Shown here: positions 6,165-30,915 of the stretch, one piece after another | How positions within the stretch are numbered: the first letter of the stretch is position 1 | How the letters are laid out: each line of letters begins with the position of its first letter | Assembly (NCBI GenBank): GCA_050943595.1 | Contig: JBMNPM010000007.1 | Location: forward strand, 6,288-70,287 | Length of the DNA stretch: 64,000 bases | Direction: 5' to 3' | DNA from: Thermoleophilia bacterium | Lineage (GTDB): Bacteria; Actinomycetota; Thermoleophilia; RBG-16-64-13 | The notes under the pieces: model-generated | Databases searched by the model: none | What the model saw: only the letters and a program-made list of their open reading frames with translations | What the model was told of the DNA's origin: nothing | Position numbers and translations under genes: made by a program

Positions 6165-7169
6165 TCAGCGACGCCTACTATCCAGAAGGCGGCCCAAAAG
6201 CATAGCGAAACACAACGCAAGAGCGGAACTCGCCCACATTAGCCTGACGGCGTTCCGAATATCCGCGGAGCCGGCCGGCCGCCCCGACTCGCCGATGAAC
6301 GGAGCCGCCACCTCGCGGCCGTCGCGACTCACCGGTCCTCCCAAGCGCACCCCGAGGGCTCCAGCAAAGGCGGCCTCCGCCAAGCCTGCGTTCGGACTGA
6401 CATGTTTCCTGCCGTCAAGACGCACCGTCCGCATCACATCACCCCAACTTCGCCCGCGAAGGCCGGCGGCAAGCCCCACAAGCAGGACGCTCAACCGGGC
6501 AGGCAGATAGTTGGCTGCATCGTCGAGACGGGCCGACGCCCAGCCGAAACGGAGATAGCGGGCGTTCTTGTATCCGAAGGTCGAATCGAGCGTACTGATG
6601 GCTTTAAAGGCTACGGCAGCGGGAGCTCCACCTATCGCTGCATAGAGGAGCGGTGAAATCACCCCGTCGACCGTGTTCTCAGCTACGCTTTCCACAGCGG
6701 CTCTGGCCACACCGCTCTCGTCCAAGTCGTCGGTGTCACGCCCCACTATGCGGGCCACCGCCCGGCGGGCGCCCGGCAGGTCTTCCCGGTTGAGAGCCAG
6801 GCGGACGGCTTCCGCGTGAGTGGCGAGATCGCGTGAAGCGATGGCCGTATATATCAGGAGAATAGAGACGAGATCGCCGACACCCGGGTTTATTAGTCTC
6901 CCCCCACGCTCCAAAGCCATAGCAGTCGCTGTGCTGCCAAGAACAATTGCGGCAGCCGTTAAGACACCTGCGTTCCTCTCGTCAGATACGCAGCGACGCA
7001 TCGGCTCTTCGAGGGCGACGGCGGACCGTCCCATCAGCTCCACGGGGTGGGGCCATGAGAGAGGATCCCCGAGCACCAAGTCCAAGCCCCAAGCACACAA
7101 AACTCTCCCCCAGAGCTTCACGATCCTCTCTTCACGATCCTCTCTCTTCTGCAAGTAGATCATCCGCAT
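6165..7169 (-). CDS. cbiB: Adenosylcobinamide-phosphate synthase CbiB/CobD.
   Basis: WGLDLVLGDPLSWPHPVELMGR and membrane topology typical of CbiB. Last gene of the B12 transport/salvage operon. Confidence 0.8.
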   Translation of the reverse strand: MRMIYLQKREDREERIVKLWGRVLCAWGLDLVLGDPLSWPHPVELMGRSAVALEEPMRRCVSDERNAGVLTAAAIVLGSTATAMALERGGRLINPGVGDLVSILLIYTAIASRDLATHAEAVRLALNREDLPGARRAVARIVGRDTDDLDESGVARAAVESVAENTVDGVISPLLYAAIGGAPAAVAFKAISTLDSTFGYKNARYLRFGWASARLDDAANYLPARLSVLLVGLAAGLRGRSWGDVMRTVRLDGRKHVSPNAGLAEAAFAGALGVRLGGPVSRDGREVAAPFIGESGRPAGSADIRNAVRLMWASSALALCFAMLLGRLLDSRRR

Positions 7170-8271
7170 GCCGCCACGTCTTCAGGCCCATCGCGACGGC
7201 CTTTTCGTACAGCACCCGGTTCTTCACATTCGTCTCGCCGTAGTCCTGCAGGCAGTTGATCACCGCGTCGCACGACTCAAGGCGGGCTATCGCAACCTGT
7301 AGTGTCTCATCGCGGATCGTCGTGAAGCCCGGCTCGCTGATAACCTCAGTGGCCAGCTCTGCAGCCAACTGAAAATCGATATCGTTCTCATGCAGAATGC
7401 CGGTAACAAACGGCACACCCTGCTTCTGCAGCGCGCGATATTCCTCAATGCCCGTCCCGCCGCCGGCGATCACAAACACTCTCGCTTCACCCTGCGGTCT
7501 ACCCAGCTCAACGCTCCCGAACAGTGGGTTATAGCTGCCATCTACCAGATCATATAGCGCATGTATCAGCTCTCTCTTGAATATGTCTTTTGGCGAACCA
7601 TAGTGCTCAATGAACTCTCCCCTGACACACATCACAACATCCGAGATCTTCTGTGCCAGATCCAGTTCGTGCATGGACATGACGACAGCGATACCCCGCA
7701 ATTTGGCCATGCTGCGGAGGATGTCAAGGAGCTCGAGTTGATAACGTATGTCGAGAAAGGACGTCGGTTCATCCAGAACAATGATCTGCGGCTCTTGACA
7801 GATCGCCCGTGCCAGCAGGACCCTTTGCCGCTGCCCATCGCTGATCCGTGTGAAGTCCCTGTCCCGCAGGTCCCAGGTGTCGACCAATTCCATCGCTTCT
7901 CTGGTCTGCCGTTTATCATGCTCAGAGAGAATGCCCAAGCGCCCCGTATATGGGTAGCGACCGGTCGCAACGACGTCTTCACAGGTCATCAGTTCTGTTC
8001 TCAGCCTCTCGGTAAGCACCACGGCCACTTCGTGGGACATGTCTTTGTTGGTCATGTCCTCAATCGACCGATTATCGATATATACAGTGCCGTAGATACT
8101 CTTGAGGTACTTGGTGATGGTCTTCAGTATCGTAGTCTTCCCAGAACCATTCGGTCCAATCAAGGTGAGAATCTCACCGGCATTCAGCTGCATCTTTATA
8201 TTCTTGATCAGAGGCTTTCCGTCATAACCGACGGCCAGCTGATCCGTATAGAAGTAATACTGCTCGCTCAT
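7132..8271 (-). CDS. ABC transporter ATP-binding protein (FecE/BtuD-like) fused to an unassigned ~130-aa C-terminal domain.
   Basis: Walker A GPNGSGKTT, ABC signature LSDGQRQR, Walker B IIVLDEPTS, H-loop. Residues ~255-379 (RVFVIAGGGTGIEE...VPFVTGILHEND...) are not part of a canonical ABC ATPase. Confidence 0.8.
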   Translation of the reverse strand: MSEQYYFYTDQLAVGYDGKPLIKNIKMQLNAGEILTLIGPNGSGKTTILKTITKYLKSIYGTVYIDNRSIEDMTNKDMSHEVAVVLTERLRTELMTCEDVVATGRYPYTGRLGILSEHDKRQTREAMELVDTWDLRDRDFTRISDGQRQRVLLARAICQEPQIIVLDEPTSFLDIRYQLELLDILRSMAKLRGIAVVMSMHELDLAQKISDVVMCVRGEFIEHYGSPKDIFKRELIHALYDLVDGSYNPLFGSVELGRPQGEARVFVIAGGGTGIEEYRALQKQGVPFVTGILHENDIDFQLAAELATEVISEPGFTTIRDETLQVAIARLESCDAVINCLQDYGETNVKNRVLYEKAVAMGLKTWRHADDLLAEERGS

Positions 8272-9341
8272 GTGCGGTTTGCCCTACGCCTTCTAATCAT
8301 GACGTATAGCACCACCGGAGCACCAAACGCAGCCGTGACAGAGCTGAGGACCAATTCTGTCGGAGCAAATGCCGTTCTTGCTATCAGATCACACCCCAGA
8401 CAGAAGACGGCCCCTCCCAAGAAGCACGCCGGAATCATGACAATCGGCTTCGCCGTCTTCAAAGCGGCTTTTATCACATGGGGAACCGCAACACCAACAA
8501 ATGCGACAGGTCCGGCAAAGGCAGTCACACAGGCAGCCAACAAACTCGAGAGCACTACCAACATCACCCGGAACGCCCTGACATTGACACCCATACTCTG
8601 CGCATAGTTCTCGCCCAGCTGATATGCCCCGATAGGCTTAGACATCAAAAACACCACGACCGAGGTGACCAGCACTACGGCCGTCATCACACCGACATCA
8701 CCCCAAGCAATGCCGGAGAAACTACCGCGGGACCAGTTGTGCAGATTCACGATGTTGGCGTCGTCGGCAAAAGTGATCAGGAAATCGGTGATGGCGGAGC
8801 ATATGTACCCGATCATCACGCCACAGACAATCAACATCGACATTCTCGCCACTCTTCTCGCTATCAGGAGCACGAACCCCATCGAAAGCAGCGCGCCGGC
8901 AAATGCCGCCAGAACAAAGAATCCGGAGCTGACCGTCTGATACGCATCGAGCACCGTGATCATGACGATCGCGACCGTCAGCTTAGCGCCCGATGAGATT
9001 CCCAAGATATAAGGACCCGCGATGGGGTTGTTGAAGAAGGTTTGCAGCAAGAAGCCGGAAAGAGCCAGTGCGCCGCCCAAAACCACGGCGGCGATCAACC
9101 GTGGAAACCGGATCAGCCAAATGATCTTCCCCTCTGTTGATTCGCCCCCCTGCTCGATGATTGCCCGCCATAGTGTGCTGGGCGATAGCGAGAAACTGCC
9201 GAGGGTTATGTTAAGAACCGCCAGCAAAAACAACAGAATAACGAGGCATACAAACACGATGGCGATCCGTGACCGGATCAGCGCTTTCTCAGGAGTAACG
9301 GCAGAGATGTCGGCCTGCGCAGTGGAGTTCGCACGCCTCAT
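8268..9341 (-). CDS. FecCD-family ABC permease (BtuC-like).
   Basis: ~10 TM helices and conserved FecCD motifs (GPYILGISSGA, CGVMIGY). Stop/start coupled with neighbours. Confidence 0.8.
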   Translation of the reverse strand: MRRANSTAQADISAVTPEKALIRSRIAIVFVCLVILLFLLAVLNITLGSFSLSPSTLWRAIIEQGGESTEGKIIWLIRFPRLIAAVVLGGALALSGFLLQTFFNNPIAGPYILGISSGAKLTVAIVMITVLDAYQTVSSGFFVLAAFAGALLSMGFVLLIARRVARMSMLIVCGVMIGYICSAITDFLITFADDANIVNLHNWSRGSFSGIAWGDVGVMTAVVLVTSVVVFLMSKPIGAYQLGENYAQSMGVNVRAFRVMLVVLSSLLAACVTAFAGPVAFVGVAVPHVIKAALKTAKPIVMIPACFLGGAVFCLGCDLIARTAFAPTELVLSSVTAAFGAPVVLYVMIRRRRANRT

Positions 9342-10579
9342 TGCAACTTGTACATGAAAGACAGCTTCTCAAGATCATCGCCACCCACAAGCATCTGGTG
9401 GATGTCGGCAGTCATCAAACCGAGTTTTGTGGTCTCCTGATAGAGGTTCTGCTCGGTACACCATACGTTGCCGGTCTTAACAGCCTTAAAATCAGCCAGA
9501 AGGTTGCTCTTGCCGATGAGTTGATCAATAGTGAAAACTCCACCATCTATCGTACTATTGTATATTATGAAATCAGCATCCTTGGCCGCAGCATAAAATG
9601 CCTCAAATTCCATGGTAACAGTTGATGTCGCTACCGTTGGATCTCCCAACTCATCAAATATATAGTTACCCCCAGCAAGATCTATCATCTTGGTGACATA
9701 GTCTCCCGGCTTTCTGACGACTGCTGATCCCATAGAGTTGATATAGAAGAATGCCACAGTTTTGCCGGTATTTTCAAGGTTCGATACGGAATCCAGATAA
9801 TCAATTTGGTCGTTAAATATGTTCTCTGCTACGTCTTCCTTACCCATCAAAGCGGCATATAGCTTTATCCACTCTGTACGACCCAAAGGATGTTCTTCTA
9901 AACTCGATTGCTCAACGAGTACCGGGATTCCGATCTCCTGCAGTTTTTCCTTTACTTCGGGAGTATGATTGATCATGGTTGACTCGATCGCCAACCTACA
10001 GCCGGTCGCCAATATCAGCTCGTAGTCCGGCCTGCTGTATTTCCCCGCGTACAAAATGTCTCCGTCCTGCATAGCCGTCTTGGCGTTCTCCACATACCAG
10101 CCGTCGGCCTTGGTACCGGATAGTGCAATGGCATCCAATGAATCCAGGGCGTCAAACAGGCACATGGTAGAAGTCGCGACAAGATAGATGTGATCGACGG
10201 GCCGCTTTAAGATCACAATATCCTCATCGACATCATCCGGGGTATCGGCGTCTTCCGGAACAACCAGGAACCGATCCCCGTTCGATATCGAGATCAACGC
10301 GTATCCCCCATTGAAGTAGTCCACGCTGAAATTCTGTGCATATTCGAGGTCCATTGTGGATGTCGGCTGCCAACCGTTTCCAAGCGGATCTCTGCCTGTC
10401 GCGCCGTCATCCGGTGGAGCGCTGGAACAAGCGCTTAGCAGCCCCAGCAACATGAGGATGGCTAGGAATACGGCTACACGGGCTGCACGGGCTACACGTA
10501 TTCTCTTCACGATTCGGCGCTCCCTTCCCAGCGTACTTTCCGGCGTCGGGCGCGCACGAAGACACTCACTTGGTGCCAA
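9338..10579 (-). CDS. Periplasmic (lipoprotein) substrate-binding protein, class III (BtuF/FecB-like).
   Basis: Lipoprotein signal LLGLLSACSS and Peripla_BP_2-like architecture. Adjacent to the permease/ATPase genes. Confidence 0.7.
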   Translation of the reverse strand: MAPSECLRARPTPESTLGRERRIVKRIRVARAARVAVFLAILMLLGLLSACSSAPPDDGATGRDPLGNGWQPTSTMDLEYAQNFSVDYFNGGYALISISNGDRFLVVPEDADTPDDVDEDIVILKRPVDHIYLVATSTMCLFDALDSLDAIALSGTKADGWYVENAKTAMQDGDILYAGKYSRPDYELILATGCRLAIESTMINHTPEVKEKLQEIGIPVLVEQSSLEEHPLGRTEWIKLYAALMGKEDVAENIFNDQIDYLDSVSNLENTGKTVAFFYINSMGSAVVRKPGDYVTKMIDLAGGNYIFDELGDPTVATSTVTMEFEAFYAAAKDADFIIYNSTIDGGVFTIDQLIGKSNLLADFKAVKTGNVWCTEQNLYQETTKLGLMTADIHQMLVGGDDLEKLSFMYKLQ

Positions 10580-11465
10580 CCGCCTTTAATGTCTGGGAGT
10601 CGAAGTGCAGCGTATAGTCGATGAGGTGAGGCTGACTCATCGCGGTCGTGTCGGCACTCACTGCGAGATCCGAGTCGAGCTGAGAGACGGGGATCTCGAA
10701 TGTGGAGTTCCCCTCAGTAGTGGTGGGCAGGTATTTAATTCCGTCCACCAGCATAAAGTCGTAATTCGGGCTGCTCCACCTGATCACTGCCGTCATGTCG
10801 CCGCCCTCTATCGTAAGTTCAGTGGGACTCTGAATAGTCGCTCTTCCCGAGCCACCCTCCAGCGACACTTCAACCATGTACTGCCCATCCGCAGGCTGTT
10901 CGCCGGCGCTCTGCCCGTCCGTGGACCCCGCGGCAAGAGCCTCCTTGGGTATCGAGGAGGACTGGAACACCAGTACCCTGTCGTACCATTTTTGCTTCCT
11001 GATACTCCAGGCCGCACAGTCGATCTCCTTGTCGAGTGCCTCCACGGGCACCGTGTAGGTGTATTTGCCCTTGGCGTCTTCGACGTAATAGATGCACTTG
11101 TCGTCCGTGTCGGCCAACGCCTGCTCACCGGTGCCCATATAGAGCTTCTCGTAACCGTGGCCGCTCAACGTGAGCACTGCCGACATCTTTCCGTCCTTCA
11201 CGATGAGCTGCGCGTCGATGATCCGGAACATCGACGAGCTTGAAGAAACGGTGATGGCGTATTTACCATCTTTGATTTGGTCCCCATGAATCGGAACCAA
11301 TGCCGCCGCCTGCTGATCGGCAACAGAAGGGGCAACGGTAGTGGCAGTCGTGATGGTGGTAGTAGTCGTGGAGGAAGCTTCTCCGCACCCGGCTACGAAC
11401 ACTCCTATCAACAGCACGATCAGTATGGGAGTCAGTATCTTCTGTATGGTTGCCCGTCTTCTCAT
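10566..11465 (-). CDS. Surface lipoprotein with two tandem ~110-aa homologous domains; function unknown (candidate ligand-capture protein).
   Basis: Signal + lipobox (FVAGCGEAS), T-rich linker, then an internal duplication: DGKYAITVS...LIVKDGKMSAVLTLSGHGYEKLYMG versus DGQYMVEVS...LTIEGGDMTAVIRWSSPNYDFMLVDG. Confidence 0.5.
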   Translation of the reverse strand: MRRRATIQKILTPILIVLLIGVFVAGCGEASSTTTTTITTATTVAPSVADQQAAALVPIHGDQIKDGKYAITVSSSSSMFRIIDAQLIVKDGKMSAVLTLSGHGYEKLYMGTGEQALADTDDKCIYYVEDAKGKYTYTVPVEALDKEIDCAAWSIRKQKWYDRVLVFQSSSIPKEALAAGSTDGQSAGEQPADGQYMVEVSLEGGSGRATIQSPTELTIEGGDMTAVIRWSSPNYDFMLVDGIKYLPTTTEGNSTFEIPVSQLDSDLAVSADTTAMSQPHLIDYTLHFDSQTLKAVGTK

Positions 11466-11579
11466 TGCCCCTCCTTAAGAGGCTGCTGAAATACCAGGGC
11501 GCACACCATATTCCGAGGTGTGCGCCCTGGTCACCAATACTCCAACCAGCCGCCAATACTCCAGCTAGTGCCGGCTACA

Positions 11580-12542
11580 TCACTTCACGCCCTGGATCGC
11601 ATCCTTGACATGCTGAACGTAGATATCCTGGATCTCGTTGAACTGGCCAAGCCCCTCAAGGATGACCTCGACTTTAAAGCCCTCGGCCTCGAGAGTCGTC
11701 TTCCACGATCCCTCTTCATCGCCGGCCATGTCGTTATTGGCGTGGTCACCCGAGACCACCATAAGCGGCTCGAGCACTACCCTTTTGTATCCACCGGTCT
11801 TCGCAGCCGCGACGACATCGGTGAGTGTAGGAGTGCCCTCTACCGTGCCCACCAAGTAGTGGGGGTGTCCCGCCGCGGTGAGCTTGGTCTGAAGGTTACC
11901 GTACACCGCGTTTGCTTCGTGCTCCGTACCATGCCCCATGAATACCACCGCAGTACTGCCATCCATGTAAGAGGCCGTCCTCTCAGTGATGGACTTGATG
12001 ACCGCTGCAAAATCCTCGTCGCTGGTGAGTAGTGGTTTGCCTATTGCAACCTCGTCGAATTTGGTCTTGTACTTCTCCACCTCGGCCACCATGTCATCGT
12101 ACTCAAAGCCGTTCATCAAGTGGGTAGGCTGTACGATCACCGTCTTGATGCCGTCGGCCACGAGCTTGTCCAGCGCCTGCGTCACGTTGTCGATTTTGAT
12201 CCCGTCCCGCTCCGCAAGCTTGTCGATTATCATCTGCGCCGTGAAGGCCCGCCGAACCTCGTAATCAGGGAAGTTTTCCCCGATGGCCGCTTCGATAGCA
12301 CCGATCGTGATGTTTCTGCTGTCGTTGAAGCTGGTCCCGAAACTGACCACCAGTATGGCCTGGTCTTTCGCAGCCGCGGAGCCCTCGTCTTTTACCACTG
12401 TGGAACCCTCATCTTTTACCGCCGCGGCGCCCTCGTCCTTTACCGCGGAGCCGTTATCCGACTCGCCGCAACCCACGAGAACCGCGGAGAGCAGTACCAC
12501 TGCAATTGCAGCAATGATTCCGGCGATGATTCTCTTTTTCAC
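11580..12542 (-). CDS. cbiK: Sirohydrochlorin cobaltochelatase CbiK, exported (lipoprotein) form with (A)VKDEG triple repeat linker.
   Basis: CbiK fold motifs (LVVSFGTS, MGHGTEH, VSGDH) preceded by a signal peptide + Cys lipobox (LVGCGESD) and 3x VKDEG repeats. Confidence 0.7.
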   Translation of the reverse strand: MKKRIIAGIIAAIAVVLLSAVLVGCGESDNGSAVKDEGAAAVKDEGSTVVKDEGSAAAKDQAILVVSFGTSFNDSRNITIGAIEAAIGENFPDYEVRRAFTAQMIIDKLAERDGIKIDNVTQALDKLVADGIKTVIVQPTHLMNGFEYDDMVAEVEKYKTKFDEVAIGKPLLTSDEDFAAVIKSITERTASYMDGSTAVVFMGHGTEHEANAVYGNLQTKLTAAGHPHYLVGTVEGTPTLTDVVAAAKTGGYKRVVLEPLMVVSGDHANNDMAGDEEGSWKTTLEAEGFKVEVILEGLGQFNEIQDIYVQHVKDAIQGVK

Positions 12543-12864
12543 TGTTCCTCTCTTCTTCGTTCACGTTGCATTAGCCGCCTAAACTCTTTCTGTAGGAATC
12601 CACGCGTCCGTGCGTCAGTCCCTCCTTTCGACGGTGTCTGTGCCAGATCCGTCCCACCTGAGCAACTCCTGTGTCTAGTTGCTAAGCAAAAATCAGGAAT
12701 GCGCTTGGAAGAACCAAGACGAAACTGAAGAGCTCGAGATCATGCCTATGAGGCTGCTGAAAAACGAAGCCCCGGCTGCCAAACGGACGGTAATGGGGGG
12801 GATTCGGCGGCACTGAGCAACGTCTTTACGGCAACAACCACTCTCCGGATGTCACCGCCTTAAG

Positions 12865-13023
12865 AGGCTGCTGAAAAACGAAGCCCCGGCCCCCAGAACG
12901 CGCTGAGCAGCACGATAGTACGTCATCGGTTGCACGAATAGCGTTGCTATTCGTGCTCCCTCTATCCTTCTCTCGCGCGTGCTGATCGTGTTCTGGCGGC
13001 GAAGCGTCATATTTCAGCAGCTT
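12865..13023 (-). mobile_element. MITE-like repeat, copy 1 (TIR AGGCTGCTGAAA / TTTCAGCAGC; palindromic core).
   Basis: ~160 bp element, near-identical (reverse orientation) to the copies at 40651-40812 and 55091-55280. Inserted 4 nt downstream of the riboswitch terminator. Confidence 0.65.
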
Positions 13024-13026
13024 ATT

Positions 13027-13066
13027 AAAAAAATGGCGCCCTTGGGAATATCATCCCAAGAGCGCC
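13027..13066 (-). terminator. Rho-independent terminator (riboswitch expression platform).
   Basis: Minus-strand GGCGCUCUUGGGA-loop-UCCCAAGGGCGCC followed by U7. Confidence 0.7.
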
Positions 13067-13127
13067 GTATTCTGCCCTAGTCACCTAGTACCACACCCCT
13101 GATCTCGAGGGTATGCTTAGCCTCTCG

Positions 13128-13290
13128 CCTACGGGTAGGTATTCTGGCTCCCGGATCACTCTACCGGCTGCGCCTTCCCATCCCTGCGGACAGTGGCATC
13201 AGCAGCCTTCGTCCCCGATCACAGCGGCGGCACCGCGACGGACTCTCACCGTCTTCCCTTGTGGCTGTATTCCAGCCACCCGTAGCCACG
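13128..13290 (-). ncRNA. Cobalamin (AdoCbl) riboswitch.
   Basis: Minus-strand transcript contains AAGGGAAGACGGUGAGAGUCCGUCGCGGUGCCGCCGCUGUGA, B12 box GCCACUG, GGGAAGGC and AGCCAGAAUACCUACC. P1 CUACGGGUGG/CCACCCGUAG. Followed by a terminator. Confidence 0.85.
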
Positions 13291-13386
13291 CGTATTATTA
13301 ACATGCGGTCTGCAGTGCGTCAATATTCCACGCGCCCCCAGCCGCTCCATGAAAATATGAATCCGCCCGGCAGGCGCATAGGGTAG

Positions 13387-14949
13387 TCACAATCCCATCC
13401 CAACGATGGTTGCCAGCAGGTTCGTGTCAAGATAATCGGATATGTGGTCGGTGAGGCGGTCGATGGAGGCCGTGCCGGCCCGGACCGGCTCTCCGGAGGA
13501 TTGAGCCTCCGCTCTCGCCTTCTCCGGCAGGCCGGCCGTCCTCCTGAGACTATTGAGGAACCGGTCTCGCACGGCTAGATGATCGAACAGACCATGGACA
13601 TACGAGCCAAAGACTGTGCCATCGAGCGACACTGCACCTTCGTCATGAGAATCCCTGTCCGAACCTGCAGTTCCGACGTGGCCGCCTCTCTTCTTAAGAC
13701 GAAGAAGCGGGCGGGCGCTTGGCCCACGTCGGCTCCTTCCCATATGGATCTCATAGCCACTCACGGGCGTCCCTTCCGGGCCGATGCCGGCTCCTGTAAG
13801 CTCACCGGTCACCCGCACCGTCCGTTTGTCGCCACCGAAGACCGTCTCTATATCCAGCAATCCGAGTCCTTGAGCCGAGAAGACCGTTGACTCTACTCGA
13901 TTAGGGTCAAGAATGACCTTGCCCAGCATCTGATAGCCGCCGCAGATGCCCACCACCGGCACCCCCTCCGCCGCCTTTGCAACGATCGCGTCCGCCAACC
14001 CGCTCTCCCGTAGCCAGCGTAGGTCGTCGATTGTGCTCTTGGTGCCCGGAAGAATGATGGCGGCCTTTCCCTCGAGCTCACGGGGAGAGGTGACGAAAAC
14101 CACCGAGACATCCTGTTCGTCGGAGAGAGCGTCGAAGTCCGTGTAGTTTGAGATAAAGGGCAGTCGCACGACAGCGATACGGACGGCGGCATTAGGCTTC
14201 GTGCGTCTCTGCCGGTCTTCGATACCCAGAGAGTCCTCCTCGTCTCCTCTCCAATCACTCAGATAGGGGATCACTCCCAGGGTGGGGATAGCCGTCCGTT
14301 CTTCTAAGAAGCGAATGCCGGAATCGAGAAGGGACGCGTCACCCCGGAACTTGTTGATCACGAAAGCCCGCACCAGCGCGCGCTCCTCCGGTTCCAAGAG
14401 TTCGACCGTCCCGAAGAGTGAAGCAAACACGCCGCCCCGATCGATATCGGCGACCAGGAGTACTGGAGCCCGCGCATACAGGGCCACTTTCATGTTGACG
14501 ATGTCGTGGTCGCGCAGGTTGATCTCGGCGATGCTCCCCGCACCCTCCACCACGATCAGGTCGTTGGCCGCCCGCAGCCGATCCAGCGCAGCGGTGACCA
14601 CCGGCCAGACCTGTCTTTGATAGGCGTGATACTCCCGCACCGACATGTGCCCCACCGGCCGGCCGAGAACGATCACCTCACTGCCGGTTTGGGAGCTGGG
14701 CTTGAGGAGGATGGGGTTCATGTCCACGTGCGGCTCGATACCGGCCGCGTCGGCCTGGTAGGCCTGAGCCCGACCCAACTCACCGCCTTCGGCCGTGACG
14801 AAGGAGTTAAGGGCCATGTTCTGCGCCTTAAAGGGGGCAACCCGTAAGCCACGGCGCGCATACATGCGACAGAGCGCGGCGGCAAGAACGCTCTTGCCGA
14901 CGTGTGAGCCCGTGCCGGCCACCATGACCACCTGCGCGGGGGCGACCAT
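13387..14949 (-). CDS. cobQ: Cobyric acid synthase CobQ/CbiP.
   Basis: VMVAGTGSHVGKS nucleotide-binding motif and a GATase-1 C-terminal domain. Start ATG at 14949 (MVAPAQV) preferred over the longer ORF. Confidence 0.85.
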   Translation of the reverse strand: MVAPAQVVMVAGTGSHVGKSVLAAALCRMYARRGLRVAPFKAQNMALNSFVTAEGGELGRAQAYQADAAGIEPHVDMNPILLKPSSQTGSEVIVLGRPVGHMSVREYHAYQRQVWPVVTAALDRLRAANDLIVVEGAGSIAEINLRDHDIVNMKVALYARAPVLLVADIDRGGVFASLFGTVELLEPEERALVRAFVINKFRGDASLLDSGIRFLEERTAIPTLGVIPYLSDWRGDEEDSLGIEDRQRRTKPNAAVRIAVVRLPFISNYTDFDALSDEQDVSVVFVTSPRELEGKAAIILPGTKSTIDDLRWLRESGLADAIVAKAAEGVPVVGICGGYQMLGKVILDPNRVESTVFSAQGLGLLDIETVFGGDKRTVRVTGELTGAGIGPEGTPVSGYEIHMGRSRRGPSARPLLRLKKRGGHVGTAGSDRDSHDEGAVSLDGTVFGSYVHGLFDHLAVRDRFLNSLRRTAGLPEKARAEAQSSGEPVRAGTASIDRLTDHISDYLDTNLLATIVGMGL

Positions 14950-14965
14950 CAGTACTCGATCGCCA

Positions 14966-16444
14966 TCAGTACTCAATCCCCCGGCGCGCCCAGATGTCCG
15001 GATAGGGATGTTTATGAGCAACCATCTGCGTTACAAGGTCGGCGGCGGCGCACAGCTCATCCGGCGCATATCGGCCGGTGGCAACCACCTCCACATGAGC
15101 CGGCCGCTCCTGCAGCGTTGAGAGCACCGAAACGATATCGAGAAGACCGTAATGGAGAGCCACATTCAGCTCGTCAAGAATCACAAGGTCCCAATCGCCC
15201 GAGAACATCAGTTCGTGCGCACTGTTCCAGGCCTGCACCACCCCCCGCTTATCTTCACTGTGCGCCGCCCCACAAAGAAGCCCTGTCGAACGCGAGGCAG
15301 GACGGACTACATGGACTCCGGCCAGACGCAGCCCGGCCAGCTCACCGCTTTCGGTCCCGCCTTTGAGGAACTGGACCATGGCCACCGTCAGTTCTTGACC
15401 GCGGGCACGAAGCGCCAGCCCTACCGCAGCCGTCGTTTTACCCTTACCCTCTCCTGTATAGACCTGGAGAAGACCCCGGCTCAAGCGCTGACGGCCGTCC
15501 GCTTCAGCGCCGGCTGCGCCTGGTTCAAGTAAGGATGACCCGGCGCCGCTCAAAGAAGCAGAACCGAGGGACTGCGTGGAGTGCGGCCGGCACCCCAAGT
15601 GGCGCCCCAAGTAAGACAACAGCTCCTCAACGCTCCTGACGGTCCTTCCCGGTGCCACCTGGGTGTCAACAGCATCGCCCTCAGGCCGCGCCACTACAAT
15701 GGCGGCGGCCCCGGCCGCGCGACACGCTTCGAGCTTGGCGTTCAACCCACCGGCCTCACCACTCTCTTTCGTGACCAACACGCCTGCCCCAAGGTGGCGG
15801 AGAAGAGCGGCGTCTAACTCTGCTCCGGTCGGCCCTTGCATGGCCAGAATATCTGCGGGAGCCAGTCCAAGTTCGCGACAGTGCGCAATGGACTCCTCCA
15901 CCGGCATCACCCGGGCAACGAGACGCCTGCCGGCTGCTCGAACGGCCTCTACATAGGTACGAAGCGTGCGGGTGCCGACGGTAACCAGGATCGCACTCTC
16001 ACCCCCGCTTTCAACTGCACGCGCCGCGGCAGTAGCGGCATCGGGTACAAGCATCGCGTCCTCAGGAAGCACCACTCTCGGACGCTCCAAGCGAACGTAG
16101 GGGACACCTAAACGATCGCATGCTCCACGAGCCAATGCAGAAATCTGTTGGGCAAACGGATGGGTAGCGTCGACCACCGCCTCGCTGCTCTCCAGAAGCG
16201 TCTCCAACCCGATCTCATCAAGCGCGCCGACGCGCACCCGCAACCGCCCCAAACGAGAGGCATCCGCCCGCCGGAGATCCCCCTTGGAGACCTTAGAGGC
16301 CCTGGGGAAATCCTCTGCTGTGGTGTTACGAGCGAGGTCCGCGCCGTGTTCGCTGACCACACTGAGCAGGACGTCGTACCCTCGCTCTTGGAGAAGCGAG
16401 GCCGCCAAGCGGGCATCCGAAGTGCCACCCAGAAGAAGAATCAT
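14966..16444 (-). CDS. cbiJ: Fusion protein: cobalt-precorrin-6A reductase CbiJ/CobK (N-terminal) + cob(I)yrinic acid a,c-diamide adenosyltransferase CobA/BtuR (C-terminal).
   Basis: N-terminal ~250 aa match CbiJ (MILLLGGTSDAR...). C-terminal ~180 aa match CobA/BtuR (GLLQVYTGEGKGKTTAAVGLALRA...ILDELNVAL). Confidence 0.75.
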   Translation of the reverse strand: MILLLGGTSDARLAASLLQERGYDVLLSVVSEHGADLARNTTAEDFPRASKVSKGDLRRADASRLGRLRVRVGALDEIGLETLLESSEAVVDATHPFAQQISALARGACDRLGVPYVRLERPRVVLPEDAMLVPDAATAAARAVESGGESAILVTVGTRTLRTYVEAVRAAGRRLVARVMPVEESIAHCRELGLAPADILAMQGPTGAELDAALLRHLGAGVLVTKESGEAGGLNAKLEACRAAGAAAIVVARPEGDAVDTQVAPGRTVRSVEELLSYLGRHLGCRPHSTQSLGSASLSGAGSSLLEPGAAGAEADGRQRLSRGLLQVYTGEGKGKTTAAVGLALRARGQELTVAMVQFLKGGTESGELAGLRLAGVHVVRPASRSTGLLCGAAHSEDKRGVVQAWNSAHELMFSGDWDLVILDELNVALHYGLLDIVSVLSTLQERPAHVEVVATGRYAPDELCAAADLVTQMVAHKHPYPDIWARRGIEY

Positions 16445-19515: not shown

Positions 19516-20216
19516 CGGGGACCACCCTCCCGGGCCTCGAAGGCGTCGCCATCGTTGAGGGACCCGGCCAGTTCGGCCGAGACAATCCAAACGGGGTTCA
19601 AAGCATCGAAACGCAACTGTCTGCCGACAGCCACGCCACGAGCGATGCTCGCCTGAATGCAATCGAATCCCCGCCACCCCTCTCCACGCAGACACGAAAC
19701 GGTAGAGGACAGGGTCTCCACACATACGCACGGGCAGATAACCATACCCCCGGGTGACAGGATTGACGGCAAAGCAGCAAGTATCTCCGCCAGGCGACCG
19801 CCACTTCCCCCCACGAAGACCCGGTCGAAGCAGCCCAATCCGGCCCAGGCATCCGGCGCTTCTCCCGCGATCACCTGCACACGCGCGGATGCCGGCCGGC
19901 CGTAGTGTCCCGACTGATGAAGAAGCCCAAAATGCTCCAAGCCAAAATGCTCTAGATTTGCCTGCAGGACGGCCAGCGCCTCTCGATCTCTCTCGATAGC
20001 CACGACCTCACCACCCGGGCAGAGCAGGCACGCCTCCACGGTCAGACTGCCGCTTCCCGCGCCCACGTCCAGCACCCGGGCGCCTGGATGCAGGCGCGCT
20101 TTAGACATGAGAAGGGCCCGCACCTCGGCTTTGGTCATGGGCACATCCCCGCGCACAAACTGGTCATCAGGTATGCCGAAAAAGCCGTCGCACAACGCCT
20201 TCCCGTCGACAGTCAT
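19512..20216 (-). CDS. cbiT: Cobalt-precorrin-6B C15-methyltransferase (decarboxylating) CbiT.
   Basis: SAM MTase motif VLDVGAGSGSLTVEA. Contains an in-frame 15-bp tandem duplication (HFGLEHFGL). Confidence 0.75.
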   Translation of the reverse strand: MTVDGKALCDGFFGIPDDQFVRGDVPMTKAEVRALLMSKARLHPGARVLDVGAGSGSLTVEACLLCPGGEVVAIERDREALAVLQANLEHFGLEHFGLLHQSGHYGRPASARVQVIAGEAPDAWAGLGCFDRVFVGGSGGRLAEILAALPSILSPGGMVICPCVCVETLSSTVSCLRGEGWRGFDCIQASIARGVAVGRQLRFDALNPVWIVSAELAGSLNDGDAFEAREGGPR

Positions 20217-22285
20217 GTCTCCTCCCTATCATCCATCTTGTAGGGATGATCCCCGTAGTTCAGTGATGGTCCCTGTGGGCCGGTGACGGTTCCCATGGAT
20301 AACGGTCCCTGTGGGCTGGTGTCGATGAGAACCACGGAGAGCGGGTCAAAGCGCCCGTCCGCGATCTCGGAGAGATTCCCTTCTACTACGTTTTCATCGG
20401 AGTAGCCGAGGCGCTCGAGAACAGTCATCCGACCGTCGATGCCGGCTTCCAACAGGCCGGCCGCCAGGGCCTGGGGATTGTGGGGAAGATCGGTAAGGGC
20501 GAGCACGCGGGGGTGCTCACAGACGGCGGCCAGCACCTCGTCAATGCCCCTGCCGTGCGCGCTTGCAAACCTAACGGCCTCCCAGCTGAGTCCAAGCCGG
20601 ACCAGCGCCAGCTGGAAGGAACTGATGCCCGGCACTACCTGCAAAGCGATGTCGGGAAACCGGCGGCGCAAAGTAGCAAGGATACCGTAGCAGCTGGGAT
20701 CGCCCGAGGCCACCACGACAACCCGCCGATGCAACCGGTCACGCACGGCGGCCTCCACGGCATCCATATCAGAGCCGATAACGATGCGCTCAGCCTGTGC
20801 AGGGGCGAAACGGTCCAGGTGACGCGCACCGCCCACCACCACATGAGCACGTTTGACGGCCTGCCATGCTGCGGCACTGGCATGCTCTTCCGCTCCCGGC
20901 CCCACACCAACCACAGTGATGCCCGGTGACCCACCCAACCTCGAAGTCACCAACGCTTCACGCAATCGCCCACTGCATCCAAGGACCAGGTCGTCATACC
21001 CCACCAGCAGGCAGTCGACCGGAGGCGGCACCCGGTTGGCGGCTCGCGCAGTTAGAGCGGCGCGTGCCTCCGACCTTTGGGCGGCCCGCTCCGCAATATC
21101 ATCCCAAACGTCGGTCAGCCCCGCTTCAGCCAACGCAGGTATGGCGGCCTCCACAGTGGGCAGCTCCAACAGGCGTCCAACCAAACCGGCGGGTGCACCC
21201 GCAGCCCCCGCCAGCGCGGCCACCGTCTCCAGGCGAGCGTCACCGTGGCGGCTGTGCGTGTCGAAGATGCCCGCCGCCACCTTCACCAGCTTCCCCACGT
21301 GTCCGACCAGCACCAGTCGCTCCACCCCGCGCTCTGCGCACACATCGATCAGTGCCCCAATGAAGTTAGAGCAGCGCACGATGGCGACCTCCGGTGCATC
21401 CAGTACCTTCTGGGCTGCACGCTCGCCAAACCCACCCGGAACTAAATAAACAGTGCTTACACCGGCAGCAAGAGCCACGTCGACCTGGGGGATGAGCGAG
21501 CGCAACCAAGCCTCCTCGGAGCGGGGAATCACCCGCCCGCTGGTTCCCAGGATAGAGAGACCTCCTGCAATACCCAAGCGCGGATTGAATGTTCTCTCCG
21601 CCAACTCCCGGCCTCCAGGGATGGTGATGGTAACGCGATAGCGCTTCTCCATCCCAGGGGATCCATCACCCAAAGAATGTGCCTCATCTAGAGCTTCCTG
21701 AAGCGCTTCGGCGATCATCCTTCTGGGGACCGGGTTAATGGCGGGCTCGCCCACATCGAGCTGCAGACCGGCTCGGGTCACGGTCCCCACCCCTTCTCCC
21801 GCCACGAACTGTACCGCCGGCAGACGGGAGGATACGGATCTCAAGGCGGCAGACTCCGGATCGCTGCAAGACCCGGCGCAGAGTTCGGTTCCCGATCCGG
21901 CGCTCAGTCCAGCGCCCGGTCCGACGCCCAGCCCCTCCGTCACTTCCAAGTCCACGTGCACGGTCACTCCATCCGTGACATCCGGGTCGTCCCCCGCGTC
22001 CTTGACCAACTCCGCCCATGCTCGACCCGGACCCGTGATCCCTGCCGCCTCCACGGGCAGAACGACCCGCTCGCCGCTCGGAAGCGAGATATCGACCGCC
22101 TCTACCGCTACACCGGCCAGGACCAAAGCCGCAGCCTTGGCCGCCGCCGCAGCACAGGTCCCAGTCGAGTAACCGGTTCGGTTCTTGCTCGTTGTAGTCA
22201 CTCCTTGTCTGCCATCCGCAGCAGTGCATTGACCGTCGCCGCCGCCAACGGACTCCCTCCCCGAGCACCCTCGATCGATATCCAC
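20213..22285 (-). CDS. cbiD: Fusion protein: cobalt-precorrin-5B C1-methyltransferase CbiD (N-terminal) + cobalt-precorrin-7 C5-methyltransferase CbiE (C-terminal).
   Basis: N-terminal region matches CbiD (RTGYSTGTCAAAAAKAA...ILGTSGRVIP). C-terminal ~200 aa match CbiE (ITVVGVGPG...VVVASGDPSCYG). True start probably near 22205 (just after the cbiC stop). Confidence 0.75.
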   Translation of the reverse strand: MDIDRGCSGRESVGGGDGQCTAADGRQGVTTTSKNRTGYSTGTCAAAAAKAAALVLAGVAVEAVDISLPSGERVVLPVEAAGITGPGRAWAELVKDAGDDPDVTDGVTVHVDLEVTEGLGVGPGAGLSAGSGTELCAGSCSDPESAALRSVSSRLPAVQFVAGEGVGTVTRAGLQLDVGEPAINPVPRRMIAEALQEALDEAHSLGDGSPGMEKRYRVTITIPGGRELAERTFNPRLGIAGGLSILGTSGRVIPRSEEAWLRSLIPQVDVALAAGVSTVYLVPGGFGERAAQKVLDAPEVAIVRCSNFIGALIDVCAERGVERLVLVGHVGKLVKVAAGIFDTHSRHGDARLETVAALAGAAGAPAGLVGRLLELPTVEAAIPALAEAGLTDVWDDIAERAAQRSEARAALTARAANRVPPPVDCLLVGYDDLVLGCSGRLREALVTSRLGGSPGITVVGVGPGAEEHASAAAWQAVKRAHVVVGGARHLDRFAPAQAERIVIGSDMDAVEAAVRDRLHRRVVVVASGDPSCYGILATLRRRFPDIALQVVPGISSFQLALVRLGLSWEAVRFASAHGRGIDEVLAAVCEHPRVLALTDLPHNPQALAAGLLEAGIDGRMTVLERLGYSDENVVEGNLSEIADGRFDPLSVVLIDTSPQGPLSMGTVTGPQGPSLNYGDHPYKMDDREET

Positions 22286-25472: not shown

Positions 25473-27752
25473 TCAACATATTTCTCCGCGCACACGTGCG
25501 GCAGCTTTGACCATATTCTCTAGTGAAGCGGTAGCTTCACACCAGCCCCGCGTCTTCAATCCACAGTCTGGGTTTACCCATACCCGTTCCGCCGGAAAGA
25601 CCTCAAGAATTCGGCGGATACGTTCCGCCATCTCCTCAACCGAAGGGATTCGAGGACTGTGAACATCCCAAACACCAGGACCGATCTCACGCGGATACTC
25701 TTGATCTAGGAATGTCCCAAGCAACTGCATACCACTACGACACGCCTCAATGCTAATGACATCGGCATCCATTTCAACGATCCAAGAAGCAATGTCACCA
25801 AAATCACCGTAACACATGTGGGTATGGATTTGCGTCTCATCTCTTACACTTGATGTGGCTATTCGGAATGCGTCAACAGCCCATCTTAAGTATGCGTCTC
25901 TGTCACAAAAACGAAGTGGGAGCCCCTCTCGTAGGGCCGGCTCGTCAACCTGGATGATACGAATACCTGCGGCTTCCAGGTCTTGGACTTCGTCTCGAAC
26001 GGCCAAGGCAACCTGTCGTGCCACATCCTGCCGGTCGATGTCGTTTCGCACGAAACTCCACTGGAGCATTGTCACCGGACCTGTGAGCATACCTTTGAGC
26101 GGCTTGCTCGTAAGTGATTGGGCGAACGTGATCCAACCAAGAGTAATAGCCTCCGGGCGAGAAACGTCTCCATAGATGATCGGGGGCTTGACGCATCGAC
26201 TGCCGTAGCTCTGTACCCACCCGTGCCGGGTCGTGCAGAATCCCTTCAGGTGTTCGGCGAAATACTCGACCATATCGTTGCGTTCCGGCTCGCCGTGAAC
26301 GAGTACATCCACACCAACCTGAAGCTGGGCCTCAACGATGTCGCGAATGAAGTCATACATGGCCTGCTCGTAGTCCGCGTGCAGCGTCTTCCCGGTCTTG
26401 TGCGCGTTGCGAATGCTGCGCATTTCCCGGGTTTGGGGAAAGGATCCAATGGTTGTTGTGGGCAGAAGGGGCAGTTGAAGAGCTGCCTGTTGCAGGGGAC
26501 GTCTCACCGCGTAGGGCTGGTTGCGGTGGAGCATATCTGCAGTGACGGCTTCACATCTCTGCCTGACATGTGGATCGATTGTGTTTGCCGCCTTCTGTAG
26601 ATAAGACTCGGCCTCCGGCTTCGCGGAGGAGACTTCGGAGGAAGCCCCGCCTCCTAGGTAGAGACTGTCCAAAGCTCTGAGTTCCGCACACTTCTGCACG
26701 GCAAAAGCCAGCATGGCGCTGATTGCAGGCTCGATTTCGGTCTCCTCGCCCAAATCCACGGGAACATGGAGGAGAGAACACGACGTGCCAAGCATGACGC
26801 GGTCGGTTCCCAGCGCCTGGGCAGCGTGGTCAATGTGCCGAAGGGCCGTGTCCACATCTACTTTCCATATGTTCCGGCCATCAACGAGACCAAGGGATAG
26901 CGCCGGTCCGCTTGGTAGCCGGTTTATTGTCTCGGTGAGCTGTCCCGGAGCTGAGACGAGATCTATATGAAGTGCACCCAGGCTTGGGTTACAAACCGCG
27001 TCGATATTCTCGTCCAAAGAGCCGAAGTAGGTGGCCAGCATCAGCTTCGCGGGGAAGGCGGCCCTGATCAGACGATCCAGAATCGAGGAGAAGCAGGCCC
27101 GCTCCTCTACGGACATGTGCATGGTCACGATCGGTTCGTCGAGTTGGATCCATTCCGATTTGTCACTGAGAACTCCCAGTATTTCTTCATAGGCTGCAAC
27201 CAGCGACTCGACATGGCCCATAGCGTCGCGGCCTTCGTCTATAACCCTACTCAATCGCAGAAAAGTCATGGGGCCGAGAAGCACAGGCTTGACGCGAATG
27301 CCTGCAGCTACGGCTTCGTCGATCTGGTCGACCAGTGAATGGCAGTCGGGTTGGTAGTGCCCTCGAGAGTCCAGCTCCGGAACAATGTAATGGTAGTTGG
27401 TATCGAACCACTTGGTCATCTGTAGAGCGTGGACACCATCGGAGTCCCGATCGCCCCGAGCCATACGGAAGTAGCTGTGCAGATCAATCAATCCGTCGCG
27501 CCGTCTATACCGCTCAGGCACGGCACCCAGTATCACCGCCGTATCGAGTACATGGTCGTAGAGCGAGAAGTCACCAACCGGCAGAAGATCGATTCCATGT
27601 TCTCTTTGGAGTCGCCAATTTTGCATTCTCACCATACGGGCAGATTCCCTCAGGTCGGCTTCCGAGATCTCGTCCGCCCAAAATGCTTCTAGAGCCAGTT
27701 TCAGCTCCCGTTTCTTACCGATGCGGGGAAAGCCGAGTGTGTGGGTTAGCAT
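25473..27752 (-). CDS. metE: Cobalamin-independent methionine synthase MetE.
   Basis: Two-domain MetE (MLTHTLGFPRIGKKREL...). Start ATG 27752 with GGAG RBS; overlaps the nrdG stop by 7 nt. Confidence 0.9.
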   Translation of the reverse strand: MLTHTLGFPRIGKKRELKLALEAFWADEISEADLRESARMVRMQNWRLQREHGIDLLPVGDFSLYDHVLDTAVILGAVPERYRRRDGLIDLHSYFRMARGDRDSDGVHALQMTKWFDTNYHYIVPELDSRGHYQPDCHSLVDQIDEAVAAGIRVKPVLLGPMTFLRLSRVIDEGRDAMGHVESLVAAYEEILGVLSDKSEWIQLDEPIVTMHMSVEERACFSSILDRLIRAAFPAKLMLATYFGSLDENIDAVCNPSLGALHIDLVSAPGQLTETINRLPSGPALSLGLVDGRNIWKVDVDTALRHIDHAAQALGTDRVMLGTSCSLLHVPVDLGEETEIEPAISAMLAFAVQKCAELRALDSLYLGGGASSEVSSAKPEAESYLQKAANTIDPHVRQRCEAVTADMLHRNQPYAVRRPLQQAALQLPLLPTTTIGSFPQTREMRSIRNAHKTGKTLHADYEQAMYDFIRDIVEAQLQVGVDVLVHGEPERNDMVEYFAEHLKGFCTTRHGWVQSYGSRCVKPPIIYGDVSRPEAITLGWITFAQSLTSKPLKGMLTGPVTMLQWSFVRNDIDRQDVARQVALAVRDEVQDLEAAGIRIIQVDEPALREGLPLRFCDRDAYLRWAVDAFRIATSSVRDETQIHTHMCYGDFGDIASWIVEMDADVISIEACRSGMQLLGTFLDQEYPREIGPGVWDVHSPRIPSVEEMAERIRRILEVFPAERVWVNPDCGLKTRGWCEATASLENMVKAAARVRGEIC

Positions 27753-28399
27753 GAAATAAAATCTCCTTCTGTGTGTGAGGCCAATGTCGATGACTGGGCA
27801 CACCACGGGTGCGGTGGTGTAACCGCGTTATGGATTTCCAAGAACGATTCGGCAGGAACAAGCGTTCGGATTTCTCCGATGTCCTGCGAAGAGAGAAGCG
27901 ACCTATCCCAAGTGACCCGGAATTCGTGCTCAATTCCGCTCTGGGCTATGAGGCTGATGCTCTCGCGTATAGGGACTTCCATCCCTTTTACTCCTGCCAC
28001 AAGATCATATTTGTCAAGTGGAGCTTTGATATCCATAGCTATGTAGGACAACAAACCCTGGGATAGCAGTTGCCTGAGAAGCTCCGGCCTGCTCCCATTC
28101 GTGTCCAGTTTGATATCAAAACCAAGCGCACGAATCAGATGGAGAAAGCGAGGTAGATCCTCCTGCAGAGTAGGCTCTCCACCACTCACAGTCACACCCC
28201 CCAGCCTTCCGACTCGTGTCTCCAGGCGGGCAAGTATGTTGCTTTCGTGCAGAAAGTTGTTGTGATGCGAGTGTCGTGGGATGAGTTGCCGATTGTGGCA
28301 GTAGGGACAACAAAAATTACAGCCCTGAACGAATATCACAGCGGCCACTCGACCGGGGAAGTCGGTGAGAGAGAAGGGGAGGAATCCGCCGATGTTCAT
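27746..28399 (-). CDS. nrdG: Anaerobic ribonucleotide reductase activating protein NrdG (radical SAM).
   Basis: FVQGCNFCCPYCHN radical-SAM cluster motif. Stop/start coupled to nrdD. Confidence 0.85.
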   Translation of the reverse strand: MNIGGFLPFSLTDFPGRVAAVIFVQGCNFCCPYCHNRQLIPRHSHHNNFLHESNILARLETRVGRLGGVTVSGGEPTLQEDLPRFLHLIRALGFDIKLDTNGSRPELLRQLLSQGLLSYIAMDIKAPLDKYDLVAGVKGMEVPIRESISLIAQSGIEHEFRVTWDRSLLSSQDIGEIRTLVPAESFLEIHNAVTPPHPWCAQSSTLASHTEGDFISC

Positions 28400-30600: not shown

Positions 30601-30734
30601 AGCCTTCTCCGTCGTTGTGGAGGCAGAGGCGGGAAGGCCAGGGGTAAACCAAGCTCCCAGGGCACTAGGAACCAGGACACCAGTGAGCCGACCGCCTCTC
30701 TCCCTCGAAGTTGCGGTAGCAGTGCATACTCTCG

Positions 30735-30915
30735 GCCGGTCTTCGGGCTTGTAGGCAGATCCGTCGTGAGACGAGGGGTTCTACTGGTCATCGCTTCCCA
30801 GCCCTAGTTGAGCCAGTGCTTAACTGATGACTTTCGTTCCTACTTACCGCTGCGGGGCAGCTCCGGAATTGCACCGGATTCCCGTGTGAATTGTGAAGCG
30901 TAGGCCACAAATCAC
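30735..30915 (-). ncRNA. Candidate cobalamin riboswitch (divergent variant) in the nrdD 5' leader.
   Basis: Minus-strand transcript contains GGGAAUCCGGUGCAAUUCCGGAGCUGCCCCGCAGCGGUAA (the GGGAA..CGGUG.AA.UCCG...CCCGC...GUAA core), AGCACUGG (B12-box-like), GGGAAGCG and CGGAUCUGCCUAC. A possible anti-RBS (GCCUUCC) lies before the GGAGAAGG RBS. Confidence 0.5.

Follow-up and report, generated by a model that had tools for sequence, protein, structure and literature searches.

What is the role of the additional C-terminal domain carried by the ATPase of a corrinoid importer? The question is raised by a gene at 7132-8271 on the minus strand of a 64,000 nt stretch of DNA from a Thermoleophilia bacterium (contig JBMNPM010000007.1, positions 6,288-70,287). 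This whole stretch is the window, and all coordinates are window positions unless a locus is named. The gene almost certainly encodes the ATPase subunit of a riboswitch-controlled type II (BtuCD/FhuBC-like) corrinoid importer of the ATP-binding cassette (ABC) type and belongs to a widespread, mainly Clostridial clade in which a domain of about 110 amino acids, PF27219, is permanently fused to the ATPase; here it was probably acquired horizontally. The C-terminal domain, hereafter the tail, may be a ligand-sensing module that regulates import.

Domain layout of the ATPase

The open reading frame encodes 379 amino acids from an ATG start, with zero internal stops in the minus-strand translation of 7132-8271. 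Its features are:

7132-8271, minus strand: complete gene for an ABC ATPase with a C-terminal MJ0874 domain (open reading frame list; coordinates checked by translation)
7498-8271, minus strand: nucleotide-binding domain of the FecE/BtuD/FhuC type, residues 1-258 (Pfam, NCBIfam, FhuC alignment)
8134-8157, minus strand: canonical Walker A motif GPNGSGKT, residues 39-46 (translation and family alignment)
8011-8013, minus strand: Q-loop position, Thr87 in place of the canonical Gln (FhuC alignment and family alignments)
7831-7842, minus strand: variant ABC signature SDGQ, residues 144-147 (translation and family alignment)
7762-7785, minus strand: canonical Walker B motif IIVLDEPT, residues 163-170 (translation and family alignment)
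7663-7677, minus strand: H-loop SMHEL (translation)
7156-7482, minus strand: C-terminal MJ0874 domain (PF27219), residues 264-372, five predicted beta-alpha units in a Rossmann-like three-layer sandwich
7450-7467, minus strand: glycine-rich beta1-alpha1 loop AGGGTG, residues 269-274, candidate phosphate/nucleotide ligand site (alignments A1 and A2, model)
7375-7401, minus strand: beta2-to-alpha2 motif GILHENDID, residues 291-299, followed by A303 (alignment A2)

Pfam ABC_tran (PF00005) covers residues 23-171 (E=3.5e-31). The NCBIfam models for FecE, heme and FhuC ATPases match with E=1e-46 to 1e-54, and these three models and that of the enterobactin ATPase stop at about residue 242. The best solved relative, Escherichia coli FhuC (7lb8), aligns without gaps over residues 15-245 (E=2.1e-38, HMMER against the PDB). 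HmuV (4g1u) matches the same residues 15-245 in the PDB sequence search (E=2.6e-27). Since the ABC models and the FhuC alignment end at about 242-245, approximately 120-130 residues are surplus to a normal FecE/BtuD-type ATPase. The conserved sequence GSYNPLFGSVE (residues 245-255) forms a beta-hairpin in both AlphaFold2 models and was assigned to the ATPase domain.

An earlier reading of the DNA, the first-pass annotation, had reported an ATPase with about this number of extra C-terminal residues at 7132-8271. The open reading frame, Pfam and FhuC 7lb8 bear this out, with the minus strand as an addition. Both peptides quoted in it, RVFVIAGGGTGIEEYRALQKQGVPFVTGILHENDIDFQ and CDAVINCLQDYGETNV, are found in the 379 amino acid protein. 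An identical deposited protein (P0012, NCBI/JGI) is named 'MAG: ABC transporter ATP-binding protein [Thermoleophilia bacterium]', MAG standing for metagenome-assembled genome (E=1.7e-249, 100% identity over 100% of the sequence).

The fusion is genuine

A protein of this layout could be an artefact, in which a frameshift, a missed stop or a chimeric assembly joins two genes. A search with alignment A3, restricted to one genome for each species, yielded 80 related loci. In all 80, the tblastn match of the ATPase ends exactly where that of the tail begins, in the same frame. The one-frame fusion is present in the cultured species Youxingia wuxianensis, Paratissierella segnis, Harryflintia acetispora, [Eubacterium] infirmum and Waltera intestinalis. 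On the complete megaplasmid of Eubacterium eligens ATCC 27750, RefSeq has a single coding sequence of 380 amino acids for the fusion. The tail is also carried by 120 of the 120 best database homologues (65-86% identity), which are 367-386 amino acids long except for two longer calls of 539 and 549 amino acids. So constant a layout far exceeds chance. Clearly chimeric or split genes do occur among metagenomic relatives (P0139, P0265, P0272 and P0002) and lend no support to an artefact in the gene studied here. The continuous frame in 80 of 80 loci and the single coding sequence of E. eligens lead to the rejection of a frameshift or missed stop, which the first-pass annotation had named in advance as the finding that would overturn its reading; an artefact of any of the three kinds is extremely improbable.

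The tail was searched with HMMER in 1.84 billion representative proteins. At 50% identity, 454 clusters had E<=1e-3 and 200 had E<=1e-10. Both ATPase domain and tail were present in 91 inspected proteins; the remainder were mostly short fragments or likely chimeric calls. The tail thus seems to occur almost only behind a nucleotide-binding domain of the FecE/BtuD type. Odd architectures included N-termini annotated as fucosidase, MatE, immunoglobulin-type (Ig) repeats or SMC_N, an N-terminal half of the energy-coupling factor (ECF) type, and a CbiD after the tail. These gene calls came from short contigs of low coverage; most were judged to be chimeras, read-throughs or fragments and were given no weight in the discussion of function. 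Two "tail-only" genes that were checked are located in split or degraded loci, and short copies are fragments or pseudogenes. Among close relatives, no genuine stand-alone copy of the tail was confirmed.

The protein with the ECF-type half, P0139 (372 amino acids), was found on short contigs of two independent samples (L081 623-1741 and L082 241-1359). Its N-terminal half matches the ECF ATPase model TIGR04520 with 294 bits and has a canonical Q-loop and SGGQ; from LDEPTS onward the sequence is of the tail-bearing type. P0139 could have arisen by natural recombination or as an assembly chimera that recurred.

The phylogenetic spread of the fusion, which the first-pass annotation had proposed to establish, is wide in the 454 clusters and concentrated in one class among the 80 loci. 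Nearly all of these are Clostridia, namely Christensenellaceae, Syntrophomonadaceae, Oscillospiraceae, Lachnospiraceae and Tissierellales. Outside this class, one locus apiece was found in Gaiellales, in Hallerella and in a proteobacterial MAG. A tblastn search of plasmids yielded matches only in E. eligens and Roseburia. Archaeal and haloarchaeal members were not reached by the word-indexed search with a divergent tail, which gave one match.

Family assignment

The tail had been described as unassigned and as foreign to known BtuD/FecE proteins. Neither statement holds. A precomputed match to Pfam PF27219 (PF27219.1), with the name "MJ0874", covers the tail of the identical P0012 and of every listed homologue. 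On sequence grounds, the protein is a member of this family, which is catalogued without an attached function. A scan with a Pfam release older than PF27219 gave no match of the tail at E<=10. The family name refers to MJ0874, an uncharacterised protein of Methanocaldococcus jannaschii whose gene probably lies beside that of an ABC ATPase. The literature searched contains no mention of PF27219, of MJ0874 or of a C-terminal domain or extension of BtuD.

Scanned against NCBIfam, the whole protein scores best with NF007082/PRK09536, "corrinoid ABC transporter ATPase" (201.2 bits). The alignment runs through the tail and pairs residues 11-347 with positions 8-352 of the 402-position model. The tail alone aligns to positions 269-353 (E=2e-6), and this is the sole NCBIfam model that it matches. 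Ten divergent tail-bearing proteins align to NF007082 likewise. Family scores of about 150-230 bits are far under the equivalog cut-off of 537 bits, so these proteins are homologues, not orthologues, of the haloarchaeal BtuD-type family. For annotation, the tail should be named PF27219, and a corrinoid-type ABC ATPase is a better name for the protein than an "iron complex" ATPase.

A riboswitch-controlled corrinoid uptake cassette

The substrate is indicated by the genetic context. The ATPase gene is part of a cassette with the order riboswitch, CbiK-like, NEAT-like, Peripla_BP_2, FecCD, ATPase and CbiB:

13117-13298, minus strand: cobalamin riboswitch controlling the cassette (Rfam RF00174, 105.4 bits, E=2.4e-25)
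11580-12542, minus strand: CbiK-family lipoprotein, first gene of the cassette (Pfam CbiK E=4.5e-90; lipobox LVGC)
10566-11465, minus strand: NEAT-like lipoprotein (Pfam NEAT E=1.4e-5, a weak match below the family cut-off; lipobox VAGC)
9338-10579, minus strand: substrate-binding lipoprotein, Peripla_BP_2, BtuF/FhuD class (Pfam E=6.5e-29; lipobox LLSAC)
8268-9341, minus strand: FecCD-family (BtuC-like) permease of the same transporter (Pfam FecCD E=2.1e-77)
6165-7169, minus strand: CbiB/CobD, adenosylcobinamide-phosphate synthase, overlapping the end of the ATPase gene (Pfam CobD_Cbib E=1.3e-96)

According to coordinates and sequence, the ATG of the ATPase gene overlaps the stop of the upstream permease gene (ATGA), and by this overlap the start of the ATPase gene is translationally coupled to the permease gene. 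The cassette is conserved in the 80 loci: the permease gene is present in 78, directly upstream of the ATPase, and the genes for the binding protein, the NEAT-like and the CbiK-like protein in 74, 57 and 51 loci, respectively. Many absences are due to truncated contigs. The adjacency to CbiB is specific to the window and absent from the 80 related loci.

The riboswitch was surveyed with a nhmmer profile seeded from Rfam-validated riboswitches, on the same strand and upstream of the cassette. It was detected in 66 of the 80 loci. Thirteen of the 14 negatives have no upstream sequence, which leaves 66 positives in 67 informative loci and L080 as the only true negative among those with enough upstream sequence. 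Wherever nhmmer calls were cross-checked, Rfam upheld them. A distant member of the family from an unrelated assembly, with 33% tail identity, is located directly behind an RF00174 riboswitch of 117 bits. The first-pass annotation had described a riboswitch-controlled corrinoid locus, in line with these results and with the riboswitch of 105 bits in the window.

In locus L028, the cobalamin riboswitch at 2764-2949 was missed by the default fast filters of Rfam in the scan of the whole set, and scored 54 bits, above the gathering score, when scanned alone. Negative riboswitch calls in large batches therefore need caution. Divergent riboswitch pairs were seen in L002, L004, L006, L012, L043 and many other loci, where an element resembling a cobalamin riboswitch is found on the opposite strand, about 100-300 nt upstream of that of the cassette. 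Of the pair in L002, the minus-strand copy alone attains the gathering score of Rfam. Locus L030, from a Bacillota MAG, has an unrelated glycine riboswitch and an unrelated selenocysteine insertion sequence (SECIS) element downstream of the cassette (8757-8869 and 11821-11858).

The genes just 3' of the cassette vary among the 80 loci. Cobalamin biosynthesis (cbi) genes recur, with CbiD in eight loci, CbiA in four and CobQ in two. A probable precorrin-2 methyltransferase (CbiL-type, assigned by eye) is directly downstream in nine loci. In E. eligens ATCC 27750, the cassette is followed by cbiC-cbiD-cobM-cbiG-cobJ-cobK. Control by a cobalamin riboswitch and adjacent cbi genes were both found, and this context makes corrinoid transport a well-supported assignment.

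The same context has a bearing on the tail. An association with B12 riboswitches and cbi genes that is (near-)exclusive would suit a corrinoid acceptor or chaperone that binds the imported cobamide on exit and passes it to downstream enzymes. A flavodoxin/Rossmann-like fold, as predicted for the tail below, belongs to the general class of B12-binding domains and would also suit this role. The B12-binding domain itself (PF02310) was rejected as a candidate: the tail has no Pfam match to it and no DxHxxG motif, and none was among the listed structural neighbours. A role as acceptor is quite improbable.

The CbiK-family protein is extracytoplasmic, as deduced from its lipoprotein signal. It and the NEAT-like lipoprotein are candidate extracytoplasmic corrinoid-capture proteins. 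A protein with a cobaltochelatase fold outside the cell is odd, and no description was found in the literature searched on CbiK/NEAT B12 operons.

Atypical motifs in the ATPase

The first-pass annotation had described a complete FecE/BtuD-type ATPase. Walker A, Walker B and the H-loop are indeed standard; the Q-loop (T87) and the signature (SDGQ) are not. In the ungapped HMMER alignment, VVLTERL is found at the Q-loop of the Thermoleophilia protein versus YLPQQLP in FhuC. The signature (I/L)SDGQ, ISDGQ in this protein, replaces LSGGQ/E. Both T87 and SDGQ are invariant among close relatives (alignment A1); every genuine divergent member has D145, and almost every one has T87. The tail-bearing family retains a canonical Walker A, Walker B, D-loop and H-loop. 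The few tail-bearing sequences with a canonical Q-loop and SGG have N-terminal halves from another ABC family. Of the hallmarks of a type II importer ATPase, the protein has ABC_tran, Walker A, Walker B, the D-loop SFLD and the H-loop SMHEL, and lacks the Q-loop Gln and the LSGGQ signature; its homology is not in doubt.

By analogy to BtuD, a homodimer is expected, so both ATP sites would be non-canonical. T87 and SDGQ are unusual for a presumably homodimeric importer ATPase. The two substitutions probably lower the basal ATPase activity and are probably linked in function to the tail. The degenerate Q-loop and signature bear on the dispensability of the canonical ABC catalytic site.

Fold and conservation of the tail

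The tail was modelled with AlphaFold2 from an alignment of 39 sequences with 32-80% identity to the query tail. The model is very confident, with a predicted local distance difference test (pLDDT) value of 96.6 and a predicted template modelling (pTM) score of 0.90, and shows an N-terminal hairpin and, after it, five beta-alpha units. No other part of the full-length model is predicted as well as the tail, where pLDDT values are mostly 80-94. According to these models, the tail is an independently folding Rossmann-like (flavodoxin-like) three-layer sandwich. The glycine-rich, Rossmann-like character noted in the first-pass annotation agrees with the model. Neither the tail by itself nor the 39-sequence profile found a significant match among PDB sequences. 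Without a specific solved relative, the ligand cannot be inferred by homology.

Known domains were considered and rejected. The first-pass annotation had named a match to a common regulatory domain of importer ATPases, such as a TOBE-like domain, as a result that would refute its reading; the tail matches neither TOBE nor another such domain. For the TOBE domain of the MalK/ModC type, there is no Pfam match, the model is alpha/beta versus a beta-barrel, and the domain is absent from the listed structural matches. The C2 domain of MetN (NIL/ACT-like, ferredoxin-like) likewise has no Pfam match and is absent from the listed structural matches. A KTN/RCK domain (TrkA_N) gives no Pfam match; the tail has GxGxG, not GxGxxG, and the scores are equalled or exceeded by those of dozens of unrelated Rossmann folds.

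In the divergent alignment A2 (the 39 sequences), G272, G291, D297 and A303 are invariant. At least 90% conserved are E255, F266, V267, R279, L281, F288, F316, A327, G345 and L354. His294, Glu295 and Asn296 are not conserved beyond close relatives. G272 is located in the beta1-alpha1 loop AGGGTG, G291 and D297 at the transition from beta2 to alpha2, and R279 on helix 1. The beta1-alpha1 and beta2-alpha2 loops are the classical phosphate/ribose ligand site of Rossmann-like domains. The concentration of conservation in these loops is the main argument for the proposed binding of a small molecule.

Alternatively, the tail could be a ligand-free structural, dimerisation or docking element. It would clamp the two ATPase subunits together or steady their attachment, to make up for a weakened ATP-sandwich interface (T87, SDGQ), or offer a platform for a cytoplasmic partner such as a corrinoid-handling enzyme. 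The invariant residues are few and mostly Gly and Ala, which points to a packing role, and in genuine members the tail is always accompanied by the degenerate Q-loop and signature. The Pfam name implies a separate MJ0874 protein, and the probable position of its gene next to an ABC ATPase gene would suit a module for protein-protein interaction. The gene call P0157 fuses a CbiD after the tail, although it is probably a read-through of overlapping neighbour genes and fits the overlapping ATPase-cbiD pairs of several genomes. Such a role is at odds with the location of the conserved residues in the beta1-alpha1 and beta2-alpha2 loops, not across a surface patch. Neither a conserved downstream partner gene (80 loci) nor, as described above, genuine stand-alone copies among close relatives were found. 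Such a ligand-free role is somewhat unlikely. A tail that acts as a small enzyme on the imported corrinoid or on a nucleotide is very unlikely.

Proposed function of the tail

In the reading preferred here, the tail would be a cytoplasmic module that senses a ligand and regulates corrinoid import through the closure of the nucleotide-binding domains. Its probability is put at roughly 40%. Other importers offer an analogy. In MetNI and ModBC, C-terminal domains of the importer ATPase bind cytoplasmic substrate and keep the nucleotide-binding domains apart (PMC3971661; PMC10710835). A 2023 review on post-translational control of transporters mentions no type II importer (PMC10710835).

In a BtuD-like homodimer, both tails would be suspended beneath the nucleotide-binding domains. 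A small ligand may bind to each tail at the Rossmann crossover site, which would consist of AGGGTG (G272), Arg279 and GILHENDID (G291, D297). The ligand would be nucleotide-like: a cobamide, the adenosyl or nucleotide-loop moiety of a cobamide, or an adenine nucleotide. Ligand occupancy could alter the ease of nucleotide-binding domain closure and of ATP hydrolysis. The result would be a post-translational control of corrinoid uptake atop the riboswitch, analogous to trans-inhibition. T87 and SDGQ would make the ATPase intrinsically attenuated and more reliant on allosteric input.

Several points weigh against this proposal. The glycine motif is GxGxG, not the classical GxGxxG. D297 is located in what looks like a helix cap, N-x-x-D (N296...D299), and its role may be structural and not ligand-binding. 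No more than four residues are invariant in the family. The best-studied corrinoid importer, BtuCD of E. coli, functions with no domain of this kind. The riboswitch already controls transcription, and an extra layer is not required.

A more specific version of the regulatory proposal is rather unlikely. In it, the tail would be a cytoplasmic sensor of the cobamide status that binds adenosylcobalamin or the nucleotide moiety of a cobamide at the glycine-rich site and gates a weakened ATPase. No such domain was found described for type II ABC importers in the literature searched, and the tail would then be the first one known to regulate an importer of this class.

Corrinoid competition shapes gut and sediment communities, and the known control of uptake is almost wholly transcriptional, by riboswitches. 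A domain on the motor of the corrinoid importer in hundreds of lineages, such as Lachnospiraceae, Oscillospiraceae, Christensenellaceae and E. eligens, is a candidate for a fast post-translational control. If ligand sensing by the tail is true, many Clostridia of gut and sediment would control their B12 uptake post-translationally as well as by riboswitch. Trans-inhibition would then extend to type II ABC importers, a class for which none was found in the literature searched.

Origin of the cassette and its surroundings

Between the riboswitch and the end of the ATPase gene (7132-13298), the six genes have 50-57% G+C, and the flanking cbiB (6165-7131) and cobQ (13387-15021) have 62-63%. The ATPase is 80-86% identical to Bacillota proteins. 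The cassette is inserted between CobQ and CbiB within an anaerobic cbi cluster. The lower G+C content, the identity to Bacillota proteins and the position inside the cbi cluster argue for horizontal acquisition. A copy in a Gaiellales MAG has 79% tail identity. A Clostridial uptake cassette with its own riboswitch was probably acquired by the Thermoleophilia/Gaiellales lineage.

A second cobalamin riboswitch (30717-30936, minus strand, 89 bits) precedes genes for the anaerobic ribonucleotide reductase NrdD (28396-30600) and the B12-independent methionine synthase MetE (25473-27806). These are followed, to about 13387, by genes for an aminotransferase, a CbiA-like protein, CbiD, CbiG, methylases and CobQ. 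The arrangement is consistent with a scheme in which available B12 represses its own biosynthesis and the isozymes that do without it. Two open reading frames of the minus strand are apparent fusions, either real or over-extended calls: CbiJ/CobK with an ATP:corrinoid adenosyltransferase (CobA/BtuR) at 14966-16444, and CbiD with a tetrapyrrole methylase at 20213-22285. At about 1000-2500, the G+C fraction of the window is 0.41-0.45 versus 0.60-0.64 around it.

Comparison with known systems

Among the closest described counterparts is the haloarchaeal BtuD-type equivalog NF007082. It resembles the family in the alignment of both ATPase and tail and in the assignment to corrinoid transport; its model extends about 50 positions further at the C-terminal end. 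Haloarchaeal BtuFCD was reportedly linked by experiment to corrinoid uptake, in work of Woodson et al. from 2005 in J Bacteriol.

The type II importers with BtuD of E. coli, FhuC or HmuV share their operon logic with the cassette described here, in which a permease of the FecCD family is combined with a Peripla_BP_2 binding protein. The ATPases differ. BtuD, FhuC and HmuV, which have solved structures, end at about 250-265 amino acids, are tail-less and have the canonical Q-loop Gln and SGG signature, whereas the Thermoleophilia protein has T87, SDGQ and the tail.

The C2 domain of MetN and the TOBE-type domains of ModC and MalK are located at the same C-terminal position of type I importers, and the logic of a cytoplasmic ligand is shared as a proposal. 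The folds and the transporter classes are different: MetN C2 is ferredoxin-like and TOBE a beta-barrel, both on type I importers, whereas the tail is predicted to be an alpha/beta Rossmann-like domain on the ATPase of a type II importer.

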